A DNA stretch of 12,472 bases from a virus. Its lineage: Duplodnaviria; Heunggongvirae; Uroviricota; Caudoviricetes. Both the position numbers and the translations under genes were made by a program. Under the pieces are notes generated by a model that did no database searches, was not told the DNA's origin, and saw only the letters and a list, made by a program, of their open reading frames with translations. Where the stretch lies: IMG/VR virus record IMGVR_UViG_3300037421_000106. One strand, 5' to 3'. Shown piece by piece: positions 3,298-12,362 of this stretch; the stretch's first letter is position 1; each line of letters starts with the position of its first letter.

Positions 3298-4116
3298 CTA
3301 CAGCTCAAATCCTTGCTGCGCCGTTCGCCTGGCCTGCAGCGGCGCGTACGCTTCCTGCAGGTCGCAGCCGATCCACTTGCGGCCGAGCCTCTGCGCAACC
3401 TCGCCGACCGTCCCGCTTCCGAAGAACGGATCGAGCACCACGTCGCCGACGTGCGAACCGGCCATGAGGCATCGCTCAACTAATCCTAACGGCATCACTG
3501 CCGGGTGCTGCGCATTGCTGCCGATTGGGATAGTCCAAACGCTGCGATTCCAATCACCATTTTCAAGATATCGGACAAAGTACTGTTCCTCCTTAGACAT
3601 AAGGAACACGTACTCATGGCTGGTCGCAGGACGATCAACTCTAGTCGGCTCTATTGCCGAGGGCTTCGACCAGATGATTGTCTGTCTCAAGTACCATCCG
3701 TCACAACGCAGCGCATGTGCAACCTGAAACGGAATCAAAGTCAGATCCTTCATCTTATAGCCATTCGGCGGCATTCGAAAGCCCTTGCGTTCTCGCACCG
3801 AGTCCCAACAAGCGCGATCACCCGCAGATCCGCCTCCACCCTTCCCGCTCGCCGCAAATACGTCGCCCAGGTTCAACCATAGCGTACCGTTGTCGCCTAC
3901 TAACTCGCGTACTAGACGGAACACATCTACAAGCGTCGCCACGTATTCGCTAGGATCGCGCTCAAGCCCAATCTGTGATGCGTGGCCGTAGTCTCTGAGA
4001 CCTCCCCAGTAAGGCGGACTCGTCACACACATCTGCACCCGCACGCCATCAACGATCATCTGGCGCATGGAATCTCGGCAGTCGCCGATCAGGCAGCGGT
4101 TGTCGTAAGCGGTCAC
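3298..4116 (-). CDS. DNA methyltransferase, beta class N4/N6 family (SPPY, probably m4C)
   Basis: Motif IV CVTSPPYW is near the N-terminus, followed by WLNLGD, WSKP, HEYVFLMSK and HPAVMP. Motif I VLDPFFGSGT is near the C-terminus, then WIGCDL. The GTG start overlaps the HTH stop. Confidence 0.92.
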   Translation of the reverse strand: MTAYDNRCLIGDCRDSMRQMIVDGVRVQMCVTSPPYWGGLRDYGHASQIGLERDPSEYVATLVDVFRLVRELVGDNGTLWLNLGDVFAASGKGGGGSAGDRACWDSVRERKGFRMPPNGYKMKDLTLIPFQVAHALRCDGWYLRQTIIWSKPSAIEPTRVDRPATSHEYVFLMSKEEQYFVRYLENGDWNRSVWTIPIGSNAQHPAVMPLGLVERCLMAGSHVGDVVLDPFFGSGTVGEVAQRLGRKWIGCDLQEAYAPLQARRTAQQGFEL

Positions 4117-4340
4117 TTCGCCCGCCCGTTCTTAACCAATCGAAGCTCATAGCCGAGTGCCCGCGCGAGCTGGACAATACTGCCGAAGCGCTGCGACCCG
4201 TCCGGATTGGTGCCGATACGGCTGAGCATCGATTTGTTGATGCCTGTCTCCACTTCCAGCACGCGTAAGCTCTTGCCGCTTAAGGAGATTTCTCTGCCAA
4301 GGCGGGCGATGATCGGGTGAACCTCTGAATTACCGGGCAT
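4113..4340 (-). CDS. XRE/Cro-CI-type helix-turn-helix regulator (75 aa)
   Basis: SLRVLEVETGINKSMLSRI...FGSIVQLARALGYEL is a typical XRE HTH. The start is moved to MPGNSEV (4340) because the predicted promoter lies within the longer 4400 call. Confidence 0.75.
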   Translation of the reverse strand: MPGNSEVHPIIARLGREISLSGKSLRVLEVETGINKSMLSRIGTNPDGSQRFGSIVQLARALGYELRLVKNGRAK

Positions 4341-4357
4341 TTCAGCAAGTCTCACGC

Positions 4358-4386
4358 TTGACACAGTTTCAATTATGGGACAATAT
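4358..4386 (+). promoter_or_regulatory. Rightward sigma70-like promoter interdigitated with the leftward one
   Basis: TTGACA is at 4358-4363. The -10 is either TG-G-GACAAT (4379-4384) or CAATAT (4381-4386, 17-nt spacer). AGGAG SD and ATG 4424 follow. Confidence 0.5.
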
Positions 4387-4400
4387 GCAGGCGTTGTCAA
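4372..4400 (-). promoter_or_regulatory. Strong sigma70 promoter (leftward; HTH and MTase)
   Basis: The - strand reads TTGACA (4400-4395), 17 nt, CATAAT (4377-4372). Confidence 0.75.
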
Positions 4401-4423
4401 ACAAGCACACAGGAGAAGCCGCC

Positions 4424-4561
4424 ATGACCCTCGCCCAGATCGTAACCCTCGCCCGAAGCATGATGGCCACGTTGCGTAACGGCTGCACTCGTGCGATCCA
4501 TTACCTCCGCCAGCTCCGGCTGACGGACGAGTTCATCCGCTGGGCGCTGCTGGGGCGGTGA
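4424..4561 (+). CDS. Small hypothetical protein (45 aa), first gene of the rightward operon
   Basis: AGGAG at 4411-4415 precedes ATG 4424, giving MTLAQIVTLARSMMATLRNGCTRAIHYLRQLRLTDEFIRWALLGR. Confidence 0.65.
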   Translation: MTLAQIVTLARSMMATLRNGCTRAIHYLRQLRLTDEFIRWALLGR

Positions 4562-4563
4562 GC

Positions 4564-4809
4564 ATGGCGCACTCTCCAGCCCCCTGGCACGCCGACGAGC
4601 ACATGCGCGTCGTGGGCGCCAACGGCGACGTAATCTGCGACGTTGATCCGTTTGACGAGCATCCAGACGCAAAGGCGAATCTCGCGCTGATCGCGGCGGC
4701 GCCGGAGTTGCTTCACGCGCTGAAAGCGGTAATGCACGGCAACGACAACGACGATAGCGTTCCGGCGGTTCAAGCCCGCGCCGCAATCGCCAAAGCGGAG
4801 GCCGCATGA
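4564..4809 (+). CDS. Conserved phage hypothetical protein (xPxPW...ANxxLIAAAPELLxAL family)
   Basis: HSPAPW...ANLALIAAAPELLHALK...ARAAIAKAE matches a very widespread phage early-protein pattern. It ends in an ATGA overlap. Alternative start GTG 4558. Confidence 0.8.
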   Translation: MAHSPAPWHADEHMRVVGANGDVICDVDPFDEHPDAKANLALIAAAPELLHALKAVMHGNDNDDSVPAVQARAAIAKAEAA

Positions 4810-5786: not shown

Positions 5787-6643
5787 ACGATCTATGTGAA
5801 GGCGGCGATCTGCGAGAGGGGGGTCAATGGCCGCTAGCTTTCAACGGCGAGAACGGAGAATTCTGGTATGCGGAGTACATCACGTTAGCGCGCTCGAACA
5901 TAGACGCACTGATGATGCAGTACGGGTGCGCAACGAGCTCCAGACCATGCTTGAAGCAAGCCGAATCGCCCACGACGCCTGCACCGGCCGAATTGCTGCT
6001 GTCTCCGAAGACATCGGACAGCTCGACGAACTACTCGGACAAAGTGTCGGACTTCTTGAGCAAGGTCAAGCAGAGGTCACAAGGCTCCGCAGCGAAAACG
6101 AGCGCCTCGCAGGCCAGATCCGCGAAAGCATCAGGTTCTGAACATTTCATAGCCGATGCATGCAAACATGCCCATTCAGGATTGCGCTACGTGAGTGATA
6201 TGTATTGTGTAGAATGCCGCATAATCAGGAACCGAAATCAACGTCCCCGAGATCGTGCGCAATATCAAAAAGAATATAGAGCAACATGCGATGCCAAAGC
6301 ATGTGAGCGCCTTAGAAATGTTAAAAGGCGGCATGACGATTTCATAATGTCTATCATGTACAACATTCGAGTTCGTTGTAAACAAAAAGCTATTCCGTAC
6401 AATTTAAGTCGAGAAGATTTCGCGTCGGTACCGGATCTTTGTCCGATATTAGGTATTCCTTTAATAATCGGAGCAGGTAAAAATCATCCTAATCTTCCTA
6501 GCATAGATAGAATTCGTCCATATTTGGGCTATGTAGTTGGAAATATCAGGTGGATTTCATTACGAGCTAATACGCTTAAACGTGATGCCACCGCTGCGGA
6601 GTTGCAAATGGTGGCCGATGATGCTAAGAAATTAGGCTATTGA
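5783..6643 (+). CDS. HNH/His-Me finger endonuclease (homing-endonuclease-like) with a 122-aa N-terminal extension of doubtful origin
   Basis: The C-terminal part shows CKHAH...RYVS..CVEC (Zn module) and CPILGIPL...PSIDRI.P.LGYVVGNIRWISLRANTLK (beta-beta-alpha-metal core). DNA from about 6140 to 6640 is visibly AT-rich. AGGAG SD precedes 5783. Confidence 0.75.
   Translation: MNDLCEGGDLREGGQWPLAFNGENGEFWYAEYITLARSNIDALMMQYGCATSSRPCLKQAESPTTPAPAELLLSPKTSDSSTNYSDKVSDFLSKVKQRSQGSAAKTSASQARSAKASGSEHFIADACKHAHSGLRYVSDMYCVECRIIRNRNQRPRDRAQYQKEYRATCDAKACERLRNVKRRHDDFIMSIMYNIRVRCKQKAIPYNLSREDFASVPDLCPILGIPLIIGAGKNHPNLPSIDRIRPYLGYVVGNIRWISLRANTLKRDATAAELQMVADDAKKLGY
5827..6141 (+). CDS. Coiled-coil protein nested in another frame of 5783..6643 (only the ~5926-6141 part looks natively coding)
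   Basis: ELQTMLEAS...LDELLGQSVGLLEQGQAEVTRLRSENERLAGQI has heptad character. GAGAGGGGGG lies upstream of ATG 5827. Confidence 0.5.
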   Translation: MAASFQRRERRILVCGVHHVSALEHRRTDDAVRVRNELQTMLEASRIAHDACTGRIAAVSEDIGQLDELLGQSVGLLEQGQAEVTRLRSENERLAGQIRESIRF

Positions 6644-6668
6644 CGAACCCGTCATTTCGTGTCAGAAT
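6640..6668 (+). promoter_or_regulatory. Promoter/operator element, copy 1
   Basis: TTGACG, 17 nt, CAGAAT with extended TG. It contains TTGAC-N6-GTCAT, and the -35 contains the HNH stop TGA (6641-6643). Confidence 0.65.
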
Positions 6669-6693
6669 TGGCCAACTTCCTAGGAGATCACAC

Positions 6694-7845
6694 GTGGGCA
6701 TGAAGATCATTCTGACTGGCGATGATGCGCGGGAGTACCTCGCGTGGGTGCAACCGACGCAACGGGAACGTTCGGCGAAACGGCTTTTCGAGCATCTGGC
6801 CGACGAACAAATCCAGACCGGGTCGACCGCCGAATTGCAGAAGGAAATCGATGCCCATTGGGCGGCGAAAGGTGTGCGATCGGAAGAGATTCTGACCAGC
6901 CCCGAAGATGCTGCCCGCATTCTGGCGGAAATGGGTGCCCCCGTGCCTGTGACGCTGGTCGGCGCAGATCCCACGGGTGAAACGGATTGCACGGCAGCAT
7001 TCCAGGCAGCAGTCGATGCACTGCCGCAAAACGCGTCCGTCGAGCTCGATACCGCGGCGCTGTTTGGCGGTCAGCCGCCGGGCAATCACGAGGAACGATT
7101 CCCCGTAACGGCCGTCGTAACCGACAACGCCGTAGGGCAGGCGCTCGCGCAAAAGCTTCAAGCTGCAGGTGTACCGACCGTAACTGCACCCCCGGGACCC
7201 CCAGCCATCGTGGCTATCGCGCCGACGCTGGACAAAGACGGTTTCCCCTGGGATCAACGCATCCACTCGGGCTCGAAAGCGATCAACAAAGACGGCACGT
7301 GGCGCACCAAGAAGAATCTGGATCCGGCCACGCTGGCTGTCGTCACGGCTGAACTCAAACAACTAATGGGTATCCCTTCGCCGGTCGCCTCGACCAACAT
7401 CCCGCAGCCTCCCACCAACGCGGCGCCGGCACCATTCCAACCTCCCGTGGGTCCTGCCGCGGTTGTGGGTGATGCGGCGGCTGCGTTTGCTGCCAAGCAA
7501 ATTCCGCTCATTCCGCCGGTTCCCGCTGTCCCTTTTGCCCCTGCGGTTCCGGTTCCCCCGCCATCTGGTGCCGCGCCTATCACGAGCTCCGTCCAGGAGA
7601 ACTCGGCGGTGTTGCCGTTGCCGCCTACCACTGCGATCACTGCATCCCTTTCTAATACTCCGCCCACGCTGTCATTCGGTGAGCTCATCTTCAAGGTCAG
7701 CCAGGGTGTTGCACAGGGCACGCTGACGGATGCCAGGGTGACAGAAGTGTGTGCGAAGCATGGCCTGCCCGGCGGACAGATCGTGCTGATCGGATCGCGG
7801 CCGGATCTGATTCCGCAAGTTGCCAAAGACCTGGGGCTGATGTGA
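6694..7845 (+). CDS. Conserved phage protein with a PWDxRIH motif and Pro/Ala-rich linkers (DUF2800 neighbour)
   Basis: DKDGFPWDQRIHSGSKAINKDGTWRTKKNLD and the C-terminal ...RPDLIPQVAKDL are patterns I recall from genes upstream of DUF2800 nucleases. The start is GTG 6694 (AGGAG 7 nt upstream) or ATG 6700. Confidence 0.65.
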   Translation: MGMKIILTGDDAREYLAWVQPTQRERSAKRLFEHLADEQIQTGSTAELQKEIDAHWAAKGVRSEEILTSPEDAARILAEMGAPVPVTLVGADPTGETDCTAAFQAAVDALPQNASVELDTAALFGGQPPGNHEERFPVTAVVTDNAVGQALAQKLQAAGVPTVTAPPGPPAIVAIAPTLDKDGFPWDQRIHSGSKAINKDGTWRTKKNLDPATLAVVTAELKQLMGIPSPVASTNIPQPPTNAAPAPFQPPVGPAAVVGDAAAAFAAKQIPLIPPVPAVPFAPAVPVPPPSGAAPITSSVQENSAVLPLPPTTAITASLSNTPPTLSFGELIFKVSQGVAQGTLTDARVTEVCAKHGLPGGQIVLIGSRPDLIPQVAKDLGLM

Positions 7846-8987
7846 CCATTGCCGACCACGCAGAGCACGCACCCTCCTCGATCTCGCGGATCATTCAATG
7901 CCCGGGATCGAGGAAGTTGTGTAAGCAATTCCCGGGTGTCGTTCTCGACGGCACCCGGGAAGCTGCGATCGAGGGTGAAACCGGGCACTGGGTCGCGGCA
8001 CGCACTGCCCGCGGCGAACTCACGCCACTCGGAACGATCTGTCCGACTACGAGCCTACCGGTCACCGAGGAAATGATCGAAGGCGCCGAGCTCTGGGCGG
8101 AAACGATCGGCACTCCGCAGCATATCGAAGAGCGTCTGCCGCCGAGCGAAGAATTCGGCCCAAATTGTTGGGGCACGCCCGACTCATGGAAGTTCGGGCC
8201 CGAGCAATGGCCTGAGGGTTTCACGTACACGCTTCGCGTGTCGGACTACAAGTTCGGCCATCGTTACGTGGACGTCTTCGAGAATTGGCAGCTGGTCTGC
8301 TATGCATGCCTGATCATCGATGGCGTCCTGCGACTGAATGGTCTGCAGGACCAGGCCGTCAAATGCGTGTTCGACATCGTGCAGCCGCGTAATTTCACGC
8401 CCGAGGGACCCGTGCGCACGTGGTCATGCATGGCGTCCGATTTGCGTCCGTTGCGCAACCGAATCAAGGCAGCAATTGCCGCCTCGGAGAAGGATGACGC
8501 ACCGTGCGTGGTTGGATACGAATGCCGAGATTGCAGCGCTCGCGCGCATTGCGGCACTCTGCAGCGCGCCGCCATGTCTGCGATCGAGGAGTCGACCAAG
8601 ATCACGCCGCTGGTGCTGAAGCCCGAGGCGCTTGGCCTGGAGCTTCGCATGCTGGAGCGCGCAGGAATGCTGATCAAGGCGCGCGCGGCCGGTCTGCGTG
8701 AAGTGGCCATGGAAACCATCACCAGCGGTGTGATGGTACCGGGCTTTCGGACGGAAACCGGCCTGGGCCGCCAGCGCTGGAAAGTGCCGATGCCGCAGGT
8801 TGTGGCGCTCGAAGCGGTCATCGGCAAGAAGTTGACCGAGCCGAAGGCCGTCACTCCGAAGCAGGCCATCAAACTCGGCGTGCCCGAAGAAGTCGTGGCC
8901 ATGTTCAGCGAGACGCCGAACGGGGAAACCCGATTGGTAGAGGATGACAGCACGTTGACCCGTCGCATTTTTGGCGGTGCGCGTTGA
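7842..8987 (+). CDS. DUF2800-like / Cas4-like PD-(D/E)XK exonuclease
   Basis: HAPSSISRIIQCPGS, EG..GH, WGTPD, SDYKFG, NWQLVCYA, IVQPR and ECRDCSARAHC (Fe-S-type Cys) are present. The GTG start at 7842 overlaps the upstream TGA. Confidence 0.85.
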   Translation: MTIADHAEHAPSSISRIIQCPGSRKLCKQFPGVVLDGTREAAIEGETGHWVAARTARGELTPLGTICPTTSLPVTEEMIEGAELWAETIGTPQHIEERLPPSEEFGPNCWGTPDSWKFGPEQWPEGFTYTLRVSDYKFGHRYVDVFENWQLVCYACLIIDGVLRLNGLQDQAVKCVFDIVQPRNFTPEGPVRTWSCMASDLRPLRNRIKAAIAASEKDDAPCVVGYECRDCSARAHCGTLQRAAMSAIEESTKITPLVLKPEALGLELRMLERAGMLIKARAAGLREVAMETITSGVMVPGFRTETGLGRQRWKVPMPQVVALEAVIGKKLTEPKAVTPKQAIKLGVPEEVVAMFSETPNGETRLVEDDSTLTRRIFGGAR

Positions 8988-9898
8988 TTTACGTCGTGCC
9001 GGTAAGCGGCGGCAAGGATAGTCAAGCATGCGTGAAATACGCGCTTGAGCGACATGCTCACGAGCGGCATCGTCTTCGATTCGTGCATCAGAACACGGGT
9101 TACGATCACCCCGACACGTATGCCCATTTGAAAGTTATGGAACAGCATTATGGTATCGCGATTGAAGATTGCAAGGCTGAAGAATATTTCGAAAGCGATA
9201 ATCGTTTTGAGAACGGCGTATTCGCTGTCGTGAAATCTGCCGGCTATTTTCCAAATACTATCGCTCGCAATTGTACTTCTACGCTTAAACAAAAACCATT
9301 TGGAGATTGGCTGGTCACACAAGCCCATGCTCTCGGTAAATTGAATTTGGTAAATAAGCGTATTAAAATTGCATCACAAACAATTTGGATTTACATGGGT
9401 ATGCGGGCAGATGAATCCAACGATAGAAAAACAAAATACGGAGATCTTGATGACGACTCATTCATTCCATTGAATCAACTTTCAACTAAATACGACGAAA
9501 CTTTTGAAAATGTTCTAGTTCAATTGCCATTAGTCCACAAGACTAAAGATGAAGTGTTTGCAATGCTTAAAGGGGACCCTATCAATCCGTTGTATTCAAA
9601 AGGTGCTAAACGAGTTGGATGTTTCCCATGTCTTCTTGCCGGGCGTGAAGATTGGGATATGGCCCGAAAAGACCCCGAAGGACTTAAACACATTGATCGT
9701 CTTCTCGAACTCGAACGCGACTTTGAAAAAAATGGCAGCTTCAAAAAGAACGGCGAGTCTCGAAAGCTGATTAAAATTCATACGAGTCGAGATGTGGCAC
9801 ATTGGCGGCAGACGGGGGAATGGCGAAATCTTAAAGATCGTCCGCCTGAAGAGAAAATGTCTGAATGCGGATGGTGTCAAACTGAGAGCGAAAATTGA
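8984..9898 (+). CDS. PAPS-reductase-like PP-loop protein (DndC/SspD/IbrA superfamily)
   Basis: VVPVSGGKDS (PP-loop), NTGYDHPDTY, RNCT..LK..P, GMRADES..R, NPLY..G..RVGCFPC and the C-terminal ECGWC are present. The gene is markedly AT-rich and starts with TTG overlapping the upstream TGA. Confidence 0.88.
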   Translation: MIYVVPVSGGKDSQACVKYALERHAHERHRLRFVHQNTGYDHPDTYAHLKVMEQHYGIAIEDCKAEEYFESDNRFENGVFAVVKSAGYFPNTIARNCTSTLKQKPFGDWLVTQAHALGKLNLVNKRIKIASQTIWIYMGMRADESNDRKTKYGDLDDDSFIPLNQLSTKYDETFENVLVQLPLVHKTKDEVFAMLKGDPINPLYSKGAKRVGCFPCLLAGREDWDMARKDPEGLKHIDRLLELERDFEKNGSFKKNGESRKLIKIHTSRDVAHWRQTGEWRNLKDRPPEEKMSECGWCQTESEN

Positions 9899-10221
9899 AA
9901 ACCGCGCAATGCGAAACCTATTGGGCCCGCATTTATATTGCAGGGCCTGTCGAGATTGCCAAACAGATTCTCCGTGAGGAATGCCTGCGCGAAGGCCTCT
10001 GCGTGACGATCGAACCTACCACATTCATCTATACCGGCGGCGAAGAGAGCGGTTACGTGGTTGGTCTGATTAACTATCCGCGCTTTCCGGCGTCTTTCGA
10101 ATCCCTGGATACCAGGGCGCGCAAAGTCATGAATTTGCTGCTGGAAAATACCTTTCAGCATTCTGCGTTGTTTATGACCCCGGTTTCCACTGAATGGATA
10201 ACCAAACGAGAAAGTAATTAA
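9895..10221 (+). CDS. Conserved phage hypothetical protein (IYIAG...GLCVT...FIYTGGEE.G..VGLINYPRFP)
   Basis: I recognise the motif string as a recurrent phage family of unknown function. It has a TTGA overlap with the PAPS-reductase-like gene. Confidence 0.75.
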   Translation: MKTAQCETYWARIYIAGPVEIAKQILREECLREGLCVTIEPTTFIYTGGEESGYVVGLINYPRFPASFESLDTRARKVMNLLLENTFQHSALFMTPVSTEWITKRESN

Positions 10222-10246
10222 CACGACCGTCAATAAGTGGTATATT
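10218..10246 (+). promoter_or_regulatory. Promoter/operator element, copy 2
   Basis: TTAACA, 17 nt, TATATT with extended TG. It contains TTAAC-N6-GTCAA, and the -35 contains the stop TAA (10219-10221) of the upstream gene. Confidence 0.65.
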
Positions 10247-10282
10247 TGACGAATCGATTTTCCACTACTAGGAGATTTCACT

Positions 10283-11191
10283 GTGATCAAGCGTCAGATC
10301 GTGTTGGTTACTCCGAAGCTGGCTACCGAATGGCTTGGGTACAATTCGGACAATCGAAAAGTCAACAATTCTAAGGTTGCGCAATATTCTGCCGACATGC
10401 GTGCCGGAAATTGGGGCTATTGCGACACATCGATAGTATTCCTCGATACGGGCAAATTGGCAAGCGGCCAACATCGGTTGCTTGCCGTGATTGCGTCCGG
10501 AGTGTCGATTGAATTTCAGGTGGTTCGCGGCGTGGCCCCCGAATATGCCGCGAACATCGACCGCCTGTACGGGCGAAGCGATGTCGACAATGCTCGCATG
10601 ACAGGGCTCGATCCTGATTTGGATCGATTCACAATGACCTTGTCACTCGCGATTTTCAGCGGAGACACCAAAGGCGGCGTTCTCGGAGACAATGTCACTA
10701 TGCGTCCCACCGACTCTGAAAAATACGAAATGCGGGCCTCGGTTCGTAAGGCCGTCGAATGGACCATTGAACACGGACCCAAGGGGCGCTCGCTGAAGAA
10801 TGCGGTGGTTTATGCTGCAATCGCGCGTGCATGGATGAACGGCGTCGAAGAATATCGACTGCTGAGTTTCATCAACATCATTCAAAATCCACATCTGTCG
10901 GAAGGTGCAAGACATTCGGCGGCTGTCCTGCTCTTCAAGCATTTCGCCGTGAACAAGGCGTCATCGGATCCGCGGGGTAATTTCCTTCGTACGCAGAATA
11001 TGATCCGAGCCTTCGTAGCCGAGCGTTCCCGCGACATCGTCACGAAGCTCTCCGAAGAACCGTATCCGCTTCCCGCCGCGCAGATGATTCTGGTTCGAAA
11101 AATCAAAGAAAATCATAATACGCGTACAATTGTCGCCAAACCGTCGAAACGCGACGGCGCGTTTAAAGAGCTCGATAGTATTCGGGCTTGA
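10283..11191 (+). CDS. ParB/Srx-like DGQHR-family protein (SGQHR variant)
   Basis: VTPKLATEWLGYN..NR......V..Y..DM..G.W......I.F...G.L.SGQHRLLAVIASG....F.V..G is the typical N-terminal domain of this family. AGGAG SD precedes the GTG start. Confidence 0.75.
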   Translation: MIKRQIVLVTPKLATEWLGYNSDNRKVNNSKVAQYSADMRAGNWGYCDTSIVFLDTGKLASGQHRLLAVIASGVSIEFQVVRGVAPEYAANIDRLYGRSDVDNARMTGLDPDLDRFTMTLSLAIFSGDTKGGVLGDNVTMRPTDSEKYEMRASVRKAVEWTIEHGPKGRSLKNAVVYAAIARAWMNGVEEYRLLSFINIIQNPHLSEGARHSAAVLLFKHFAVNKASSDPRGNFLRTQNMIRAFVAERSRDIVTKLSEEPYPLPAAQMILVRKIKENHNTRTIVAKPSKRDGAFKELDSIRA

Positions 11192-11215
11192 CATTCCCGT
11201 CAATAGTGGTACAAT
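11188..11215 (+). promoter_or_regulatory. Promoter/operator element, copy 3
   Basis: TTGACA, 16 nt, TACAAT with extended TG. It contains the perfect TTGAC-N6-GTCAA, and the -35 contains the stop TGA (11189-11191) of the upstream gene. Confidence 0.72.
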
Positions 11216-11241
11216 TCATCACCCTCAACAGGAGCATTTGA

Positions 11242-11433
11242 ATGAATGTCGGCGATATCGTTAAATTGAAATCAGGCGGCCCGAGTATGACCGTGGACGC
11301 GATCGGACCGGATCTTGACAATGGCGACGAAACTGTCGCATTTTGCCAATGGTTCGGCAGCAGCATCGGGCCCGCTGGGTTGTACAGCGACACATTCAAT
11401 GTTAAAACTCTGACGATTCAGGAGAAGCAATAA
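11242..11433 (+). CDS. YodC / DUF2158 family protein
   Basis: GDIVKLKSGGPSMTV...CQWF...F....L is the DUF2158 signature. AGGAG SD is present and the stop forms a TAATG overlap with the SSB gene. Confidence 0.85.
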   Translation: MNVGDIVKLKSGGPSMTVDAIGPDLDNGDETVAFCQWFGSSIGPAGLYSDTFNVKTLTIQEKQ

Positions 11434-12362
11434 TGGCAAACGAGAAAGTCCGAATCCTCACCCCCAAGCAGCCGATCGGTCGCCTGGTCGGCGGTTCCGT
11501 GTCGAAGGCGCGGGACAAAGACGCCGACGGCAAGCCGTACACGATCAAGACCGGTCCGAATGCCGGTCAGCCGACGGTCAAGTACTACATCGCGCTCGCC
11601 ATCCCGAAGCAGGGTGAGGCGCATTGGGCGTCCACGGAATGGGGCGCGAAGGTGTGGCAAGTCGGTCACACGGCGTTTCCGGGCGTCGCCCAGAACCCGA
11701 CGTTCGCCTGGAAGATCGAAGACGGCGACAGCACGATTCCGAACACTAAGGGTAAGACTAACGCCTCGAACCCGAATCTGCGCGGATGTTGGGTCCTGCA
11801 CATGACGACGTCGCTGCCGATCAAGGCATGCAACGCCGACGGAAGTGCGGCGATCAATCCCGAGCAGATCAAGTGCGGGTACTACGTCCAGGTCTCGATC
11901 ATGTGCCAGGGCAACAGCAGCACGCAGAAACCGGGCGTGTATCTGAATCCCGAGGCCGTGGCGTTGGCCGGGATCGGCGAGGAGATCGTTCAGGGTCTGG
12001 ACACGGCGGCTGTCGGTTTCGGCGGTGGCGTCCTGCCCGCGGGCGCAAGCGCCCCTCCGAACCTGCTGACCGGTGCGCCAGCTGCCCCTGCAGCCCCTGG
12101 CGTGGCTGTTCCGACCCCTGCGGCCTACGTTCCGCCGGTTACGGTCGCAGCAGCCCCGCCCCCGCCCAATGTGGCGATCCTGGCCCCGCCGCCGGTTCCG
12201 GGCGTTGCCGTGGCACCTCCGGCTCCGCCAGCGCCCCCTGCGCCTCCTGCAGCCCCAGTGGGCCCGCAGCTGACGGCAAAAGCGGCAGGTTTCACATACG
12301 CGCAATTGATTGGCGCGGGATGGACAGACGCCACGTTGCGTCAGAACGGCATGATGGTTTAA
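11433..12362 (+). CDS. Phage ssDNA-binding protein (DUF2815-like OB fold) with a Pro/Ala-rich tail
   Basis: GRLVGGSV, FAWKIEDGD, GCWVLHMTT, IKCGYYV.V and PGVYLNP match SSBs of DUF2800-associated modules. The long PA-rich tail ends in QLTAKAAGFTYAQLIGAGWTDATLRQNGMM. Confidence 0.78.
   Translation: MANEKVRILTPKQPIGRLVGGSVSKARDKDADGKPYTIKTGPNAGQPTVKYYIALAIPKQGEAHWASTEWGAKVWQVGHTAFPGVAQNPTFAWKIEDGDSTIPNTKGKTNASNPNLRGCWVLHMTTSLPIKACNADGSAAINPEQIKCGYYVQVSIMCQGNSSTQKPGVYLNPEAVALAGIGEEIVQGLDTAAVGFGGGVLPAGASAPPNLLTGAPAAPAAPGVAVPTPAAYVPPVTVAAAPPPPNVAILAPPPVPGVAVAPPAPPAPPAPPAAPVGPQLTAKAAGFTYAQLIGAGWTDATLRQNGMMV

Follow-up and report, generated by a model that had tools for sequence, protein, structure and literature searches.

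Several described systems share traits with the locus considered here. TetR-family systems such as TetR–tetO use 5-N6-5 palindromes, of which the McbR site is an example. Morons, found in lambdoid and HK97-like phages, are extra genes that lie between conserved neighbours and carry their own promoter and terminator, and free-standing homing HNH endonucleases are also known in phages. In T4-type phages, promoter-early stem-loops (PeSLs) have been described (Arbiol et al. 2010, PMC2839356; Comeau et al. 2014, PMC4122927), in which a repeated sigma-70-like early promoter runs from the stop codon of the upstream gene to the Shine–Dalgarno (SD) sequence and start codon of the next one, with a dyad that may overlap the -35 box and with accessory genes that differ between close relatives. 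We analysed a 12,472-nucleotide stretch of DNA from a Caudoviricetes phage (IMG/VR record IMGVR_UViG_3300037421_000106; hereafter, the window), in which a promoter overlapping a palindrome occurs three times on the plus strand, at positions 6640, 10218, and 11188, exactly as a first-pass annotation had given them. Our analysis confirms this observation and extends it to a conserved promoter–operator regulon with a plausible minimal TetR-type repressor.

The three promoters, referred to here as P1, P2, and P3, resemble PeSLs in all of the traits mentioned above, including the upstream stop codon at one end of an early promoter and the SD sequence and start of the next gene at the other. PeSLs, however, also possess stable guanine–cytosine (GC)-rich terminator hairpins, are present in about 50 copies per genome with around 100 bp conserved, and give rise to circles that have been shown by experiment. 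In contrast, the dyad in the window forms only a weak hairpin and is operator-like, no terminating stable stem-loop was found here, the window has 3 copies and a complete relative of 72 kb has 5, conservation is confined to a core of 16 to 30 nt, most inserts have a single flanking copy, and circles are hypothetical.

P1 (6640–6668) consists of a -35 hexamer TTGACG (6640–6645), a palindrome occupying 6640–6655, a TGn element (6660–6662), and a -10 hexamer CAGAAT (6663–6668), with a 17-nt spacer, and it is predicted to drive the phrog_11133 gene. P2 (10218–10246) combines the -35 hexamer TTAACA, a spacer of 17 nt, a TGn element, and the -10 hexamer TATATT (10241–10246); its palindrome has one arm mismatch, and the gene predicted to be under its control is that of phrog_5931. 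P3 (11174–11215) begins with ATAGTA (11174–11179), followed by the -35 hexamer TTGACA (11188–11193), the palindrome (11188–11203), a TGn element, and the -10 hexamer TACAAT (11210–11215), with a 16-nt spacer, and would drive the genes for a DUF2158 protein and a Gp2.5-like single-stranded DNA-binding protein (SSB). A consensus scan called all three as promoters (9 to 11 of 12 matches; spacers of 17, 17, and 16 nt) and flagged a TG directly before each -10, with TGn read at 6660, 10238, and 11207. Thus, the GTG that had been noted before the -10 is present, and its identity is that of an extended -10 element.

The 16-bp dyad, TT(G/A)AC-N6-GTCA over the -35 and the spacer, is found in all three copies. 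The pattern TTRAC-N4-CCGTCAW gives 3 hits in the window against 0.17 expected, although the pattern was built from these same sites, and the looser TTGAC-N6-GTCA pattern reveals no further perfect site there. The leader of P1 ends (6680–6702) with a ribosome-binding site (RBS), CTAGGAGAT, at 6680–6688 and candidate starts GTG at 6694 and ATG at 6700, while that of P2 has an RBS at 10268–10276 and a GTG start at 10283, so that the presence of CTAGGAGAT ahead of GTG starts after P1 and P2 also holds. For comparison, we used loci (designated by L numbers) encoding relatives of the SSB and the exonuclease of the window. The P1 sequence is unchanged in L012 and L013 and has 2 changes in L001, a P1-type promoter is also present in L034, and the end of the P1 leader is kept in all four. 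P1, P2, and P3 would be sigma-70-type extended -10 promoters for the host RNA polymerase, serving early and replication genes, and each would carry a palindromic operator of 16 to 20 bp (TTGACG-N4-CGTCAA) covering the -35 and the spacer. We regard the explanation to which this belongs, taken as a whole, as rather likely.

Support for the palindrome comes from a test that is independent of the window. Among 137 promoter-like sites in the related loci, picked without use of the right arm, GTCA was found at positions 12–15 in 25, where about 0.5 would be expected, and the next most frequent 4-mer occurred 4 times. The same layout (TTGAC, six bases, GTCA, and a -10 at 17 nt) is found in phages whose proteins are only 30–50% identical. 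For instance, the P1 and P3 positions retain the dyad in L003–L006, L020, L022–L029, JD001, PEAT2, and Vibrio 138, with varying bases between the arms, and the P3 position, between the exonuclease and SSB genes, retains it in around 15 lineages, either in the gap or within the 3′ end of the exonuclease gene. The proposal of a regulon for one dimeric regulator is borne out to this extent, as the palindrome is retained at orthologous promoters despite such low protein identity.

We also counted distinct dyad sites in whole genomes, with the reversed pattern as a control. There are 5 sites in the complete record of L001 (71.8 kb), 9 in the record holding L006 (G002), 8 in the one holding L004 (G003), 7 in Pseudomonas phage MR14, and 2 in Shewanella phage SppYZU01. 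The Klebsiella phages JD001, KpV79, MEW1, and IME346 have 11, 12, 12, and 14, respectively, and we found 8 in Vibrio phage 138, 14 in Pectobacterium phage PEAT2, and 12 in Edwardsiella phage PEi21. The control gave 0 to 1 per genome versus 2 to 14 dyads in these 12 genomes. In KpV79 (MF663761.1), the promoter features annotated by the depositors fall on 7 or 8 of the 12 dyad sites, including the orthologues of P1 and P3, and that annotation makes no mention of the palindrome and no tie to the TetR-family gene. These comparisons support the idea that the dyad promoters constitute a conserved early-gene regulon across a wide phage group, and the regulon of this putative operator would span the phages that share the module of phrog_11133, DUF2800 exonuclease, and Gp2.5-like SSB. 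In many lineages, an A/T-rich element of approximately AAATAGT(T/A) is found at bases -9 to -1 before the -35 (for instance, at L001:7647–7655, L038:2885–2893, and 11174–11179 of the window), often providing the TAG with which the upstream gene ends; it may act in the manner of an UP element or extend the operator.

As to the regulator, clustering of all the open reading frames (ORFs) in the loci revealed one small conserved family besides the replication genes. It was found in 14 loci, has matches to Pfam TetR_N and phrog_8723, and comprises proteins of 92 to 119 residues, such as the one encoded by L001:4778–5080. Exactly one TetR-like gene is present in each of the 12 dyad-bearing genomes (with two matches that do not reach the Pfam cut-off), while the four DUF2800 relatives without a TetR-like gene have 0 (Sergei, Sano, and Vibrio 1.194.O) or 2 dyads (Achromobacter 83-24). 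In at least 9 genomes, all of them relatives, a dyad lies at most about 110 nt upstream of the TetR gene, which is an autoregulated layout; in L001 and L012, this gene is located between a nuclease-like gene and the primase gene. Proteins of this type (L001:4778–5080, L034:93–395, and JD001 gp45, 29581–29859) are conserved across the phage group and are too short to include a ligand-binding domain of the usual kind.

This TetR_N-type protein of about 100 residues (phrog_8723), which we call mini-TetR, is the most likely candidate for the regulator. A mini-TetR dimer on the operator would block the access of sigma-70; in this way, early transcription would be switched off and the promoter of the mini-TetR gene itself repressed. 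The operator over the promoter, the regulator gene behind its own operator in the relatives, and the TetR_N helix-turn-helix (HTH) are all shared with TetR-family systems. Unlike a typical TetR, the phage protein has 92 to 119 residues and no recognisable ligand-binding domain, and its putative targets would be early promoters across the phage and not a single efflux or metabolic operon. Comeau et al. (2012, PMC3391216) reported tetR-like genes in CP-T1 and 138, with no promoter motif given, and our searches of the literature for the motif and for a phage mini-TetR regulon returned no description of a link between the two.

Another feature reported in the first-pass annotation is that the upstream stop codon lies within the -35 in 3 of 3 copies, and this is indeed the case, as ORFs end at 6643 (TGA), 10221 (TAA), and 11191 (TGA), with the stop on bases 2–4 of each hexamer. 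In the family, an upstream ORF ends close to approximately 33 dyad promoters; the stop occupies these bases in 10 to 12 of them, and the genes concerned include core ones, namely the exonuclease gene (L005 and L022) and a 154-aa gene before the TetR promoter (L001). At six further promoters, the stop is a TAG six bases upstream, in the conserved A/T-rich ATAGT element; in L001, L012, and L013, for example, the primase and exonuclease genes end on this TAG and not in the -35. One third is the rate that a random reading frame would give where a gene runs flush into the promoter, and the element would bring its own stops, with TAG in ATAGT, TGA or TAA in the -35, and TAG in CTAGGAG. Given the family rate of about one third, we consider the stop within the -35 to be a by-product of compaction.

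The genes around the promoters fall into core and accessory ones. The window has a GC content of about 59%, and its leftward operon encodes a weak HTH_3 protein (4113–4343), an N6/N4 methyltransferase, a DnaB-like helicase, and a DnaD-like loader. A rightward operon of small genes diverges from it, followed by an HNH endonuclease and a replication and recombination module. HNH-B, an AT-rich endonuclease block on the plus strand (6120–6639) with matches to phrog_3322 and phrog_1035, has a likely start at 6191 or 6200 in a frame that is open from 5783, and its stop (6641–6643) lies inside the -35 of P1. All the genes that follow are on the same strand. The core gene of phrog_11133 (6694–7845), a profile match kept in the relatives, has a hypervariable middle (6966–7194), and the next core gene encodes the DUF2800 PD-(D/E)XK exonuclease (7842–8987). 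An accessory block (8981–11421) then comprises a 3′-phosphoadenosine-5′-phosphosulfate (PAPS) reductase-like gene (8984–9898), whose TTG start overlaps the exonuclease stop, the phrog_4848 gene (9895–10221; 108 aa; stop TAA at 10219–10221 inside the -35 of P2), P2, the phrog_5931 gene (10283–11191; stop TGA at 11189–11191 inside the -35 of P3), a variant P3, and the small DUF2158 gene (11242–11433), which is inserted between the RBS/ATG of P3 and the gene for the Gp2.5-like single-stranded DNA-binding and annealing protein, a core gene (11433–12362). As had been claimed, each block upstream of a promoter is AT-richer than the core genes, with GC contents of around 40–43% for HNH, 37–46% for PAPS, and 47–55% for 4848 and 5931, against 60–65% for the core.

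No phage near-identical to the window was found in GenBank, and neither a scan of genome contigs with the exonuclease as query nor a viral scan with 5931 gave a match. The PAPS reductase-like gene, phrog_4848, and the gene of phrog_5931 (the SGQHR protein of the first-pass annotation) together span 8984–11191; presumably, these three resemble the IbrA/IbrB-type pairs of a PAPS reductase and a ParB-like protein. A Pfam search found no domain in the SGQHR protein. Proteins of phrog_4848 (107 to 109 aa) are very widespread, with 1693 database relatives at 60–74% identity, Pseudomonas genomes included. Between the HTH gene and the rightward operon, positions 4343–4424 hold two fully overlapping, face-to-face predicted promoters, of which the minus-strand one (4400 to 4372) matches 11 of 12 consensus positions and the plus-strand one, with a -35 at 4358, is weaker. 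Binding of RNA polymerase to the two would be mutually exclusive, and they may form a switch. The TTGAC-N6-GTCA dyad is absent from this region.

The close relatives L001, L012, and L013 show where accessory DNA enters. Their core genes are 86–100% identical to those of the window, and tracts of 100% identity alternate with tracts of 85–95%, which argues for frequent homologous recombination. In all three, 8981–11186 and the DUF2158 gene are missing, leaving the exonuclease stop, three bases, P3, and the SSB gene. The P3 of the window is only 83% identical to theirs (the flanks are 94–100% identical) and has a 6-nt insertion after ATAGTA, so it came with the accessory block. This block is also found in L035, L036, and a Logan contig, and the exonuclease/PAPS junction is identical in L036, a more diverged variant, which points to one insertion that spread by flanking homology. 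The junction between the primase gene and P1 exists in three states: empty in L001, occupied by the 566-bp HNH-B insert in the window as in L012, and with the unrelated HNH-A (612 bp), whose stop is also within the -35, in L013. We observed, therefore, that the slots upstream of P1 and P3 are where accessory genes, namely HNH-A, HNH-B, and the PAPS block, gather. The short gaps 5′ of the dyad promoters would be operon boundaries and, for this reason, we propose that they are tolerant slots in which homing HNH and other accessory genes would pile up and then spread by recombination in the flanking core genes.

These inserts recall morons in that genes of deviant composition lie between genes that are adjacent in relatives, and 5931 has its own promoter. 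Unlike in morons, the scan found no terminator after any gene, the HNH and PAPS genes lack their own promoters, and the promoter is placed at the downstream edge, serving the next core gene, so that only 5931 has an upstream promoter (P2). Homing endonucleases offer another parallel, as two unrelated AT-rich HNH genes occupy the same primase/P1 slot in different relatives and a third relative is empty there; this likeness covers the HNH inserts only, and their homing is putative.

Other variable segments were observed in the same genomes. In L012 (8303–8420 region), HNH-B has its own ATG overlapping the primase stop and encodes 187 aa; the window has other sequence in place of the first ~15 codons, and the frame is open back to 5783 and overlaps an ORF at 5827–6141. 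The 286-aa HNH ORF of the window is thus probably a recombination scar and not a designed fusion. The middle of phrog_11133 (6966–7194) is 33–54% identical to L001 and L012 between flanks of 90–100% and is 100% identical throughout in L013; from these alignments, it reads as a segment swapped inside a core gene. In the window, DUF2158 precedes the SSB gene and has a duplicated RBS on either side; in JD001 (L051, 36867–37031) and IME346, it follows the SSB gene, and it would be a small gene able to change position inside the module. A long, perfect, terminator-like hairpin lies between the SSB and DNA polymerase genes of L013 (5640–5710); at this place, L001 (11080–12383) and L012 have 1.3 kb with two extra ORFs and no adjoining dyad.

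It had also been suggested that the elements are joints for the exchange of cassettes. In a PeSL-like scheme, which would be additive to the promoter–operator explanation, the promoter cores would be recombination substrates and cassettes would move between slots, perhaps by the action of the phage's own exonuclease/annealing pair and possibly via circular intermediates; we view this scheme as possible yet doubtful. The breakpoints of the relatives are divided on this point. The window is homologous to L001 from the very first base of the P1 -35 onwards, P3 marks the end of the 2.2-kb PAPS block, one slot is shared by HNH genes of two unrelated kinds, and 5931 is bounded by P2 and P3. The best example is L034, in which the order is TetR, primase, stop, three bases, a dyad promoter, a 5931 homologue (80% aa identity), a small ORF, a PAPS homologue, a 4848 remnant (the first ~19 codons plus the last ~22 nt), a P1-type promoter, and phrog_11133. 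There, accessory genes that are in the P3 slot of the window occupy the P1 slot in permuted order, between two dyad promoters where L001 has one. In both genomes, the 3′ end of 4848 abuts a -35, and the downstream half of the promoter and the gene it drives differ (P2 to 5931 in the window; the P1-type promoter to phrog_11133 in L034), which is explained most simply by a breakpoint at or inside the promoter core, as the PeSL model predicts. On the other hand, a cassette between two copies is not what is seen for HNH-A, HNH-B, or the exonuclease/PAPS junction, where the promoter copy is on the right side only. The left-arm junction of the window is not a P1 breakpoint either, since comparison with L012 places it at 6120, within the 5′ end of HNH-B; the left arm differs throughout from those of L001 and L012 and comes from a different replication module. 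Two other indels in the close relatives lie away from dyads, P1, P2, and P3 have no exact match longer than about 9 nt within a shared core of about 16 to 30 nt, and the P3 of the window is a diverged variant, so that exchange did not happen inside P3. A permuted order of only two units, moreover, says little in favour of a circle. Of 256 variable-segment edges in four Jedunavirus genomes, defined by a crude blastn-gap method, 25 were within 60 nt of a dyad, about threefold the random expectation but no higher than the share of gene junctions with a dyad (12–15%). In JD001 (L051), dyad promoters at 4781, 9863, 15454, 16431, and 18563 head small plus-strand accessory islands in minus-strand structural operons, a layout that recalls the hyperplastic regions of T4-like phages and ties the element to accessory DNA, by mechanism or by selection. 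Cassette exchange via the promoters is thus possible but unproven, a minority reading with one good example and several counter-examples, and the more specific claim that the exonuclease/annealing pair recombines the cores as portable joints and moves PAPS-4848 and 5931 between the P1 and P3 slots, possibly as circles, is slightly more doubtful still.

The palindrome itself could be read in other ways. A hairpin in RNA or DNA that terminates or attenuates upstream transcription, as in PeSLs, might be suggested by a scan that flags 6641–6654 and its T-rich tail as terminator-like, but the dyad hairpins have 5 to 6 bp, about -6 to -11 kcal/mol, and z-scores of -0.4 to -1.6 against shuffles, that of P2 is not formed, and most copies are without a U tract. 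We rejected the hairpin terminator on these energies and z-scores and regard it as very improbable; because the hairpins are weak, an operator is the better reading. It is unlikely, although less so, that the dyad is the operator of another protein, be it the HTH protein (4113–4343) that the first-pass annotation named as a possible regulator, a factor of the host, or some other DNA-binding protein conserved among the phages. The HTH gene does head the divergent early control region. However, L001, L012, and L013, which share P1 and P3, have no homologue of it, and its own control region has no dyad, so we rejected this candidate. The hosts span Klebsiella, Vibrio, Pseudomonas, Shewanella, and soil bacteria, and the GC content of the phages ranges from 43 to 66%, which makes a single host factor unlikely, and in 4 related phages, the dyads disappear along with the TetR gene. 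Several points nevertheless count against the explanation that we prefer, in which mini-TetR acts on an operator within compact promoters. Mini-TetR is absent from the 12.5-kb window by hmmsearch, so the regulator of P1–P3 is inferred from relatives, and this also favours another protein, as does the fact that the tie to TetR rests on co-occurrence, which is a correlation among related genomes that are not phylogenetically independent, and not proof. SppYZU01 has a TetR gene yet only 2 perfect dyads. The 3 of 3 stops of the window are mildly unusual against the family rate (roughly p = 0.05), and packing alone explains poorly that, in two genomes, the end of 4848 falls in the -35 of promoters that differ from each other; the contexts of homologues of 4848 in unrelated phages, where dyads are absent and the gene brings a stop of its own, are uninformative.

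With these reservations, the combination of one compact promoter–operator and a candidate minimal TetR-type repressor offers a regulatory scheme that can be tested for early genes in a large and mostly uncharacterised phage group, which includes cultivable phages of Klebsiella, Pectobacterium, Vibrio, Edwardsiella, and Pseudomonas. It also shows where this group takes up accessory genes such as homing nucleases and the PAPS-reductase/ParB-like module. Furthermore, one pair of genomes with the same genes in two promoter slots makes PeSL-type shuffling testable outside T4-like phages, and if portable joints do exist, they would represent PeSL-like shuffling outside those phages that is built on an operator instead of a terminator.

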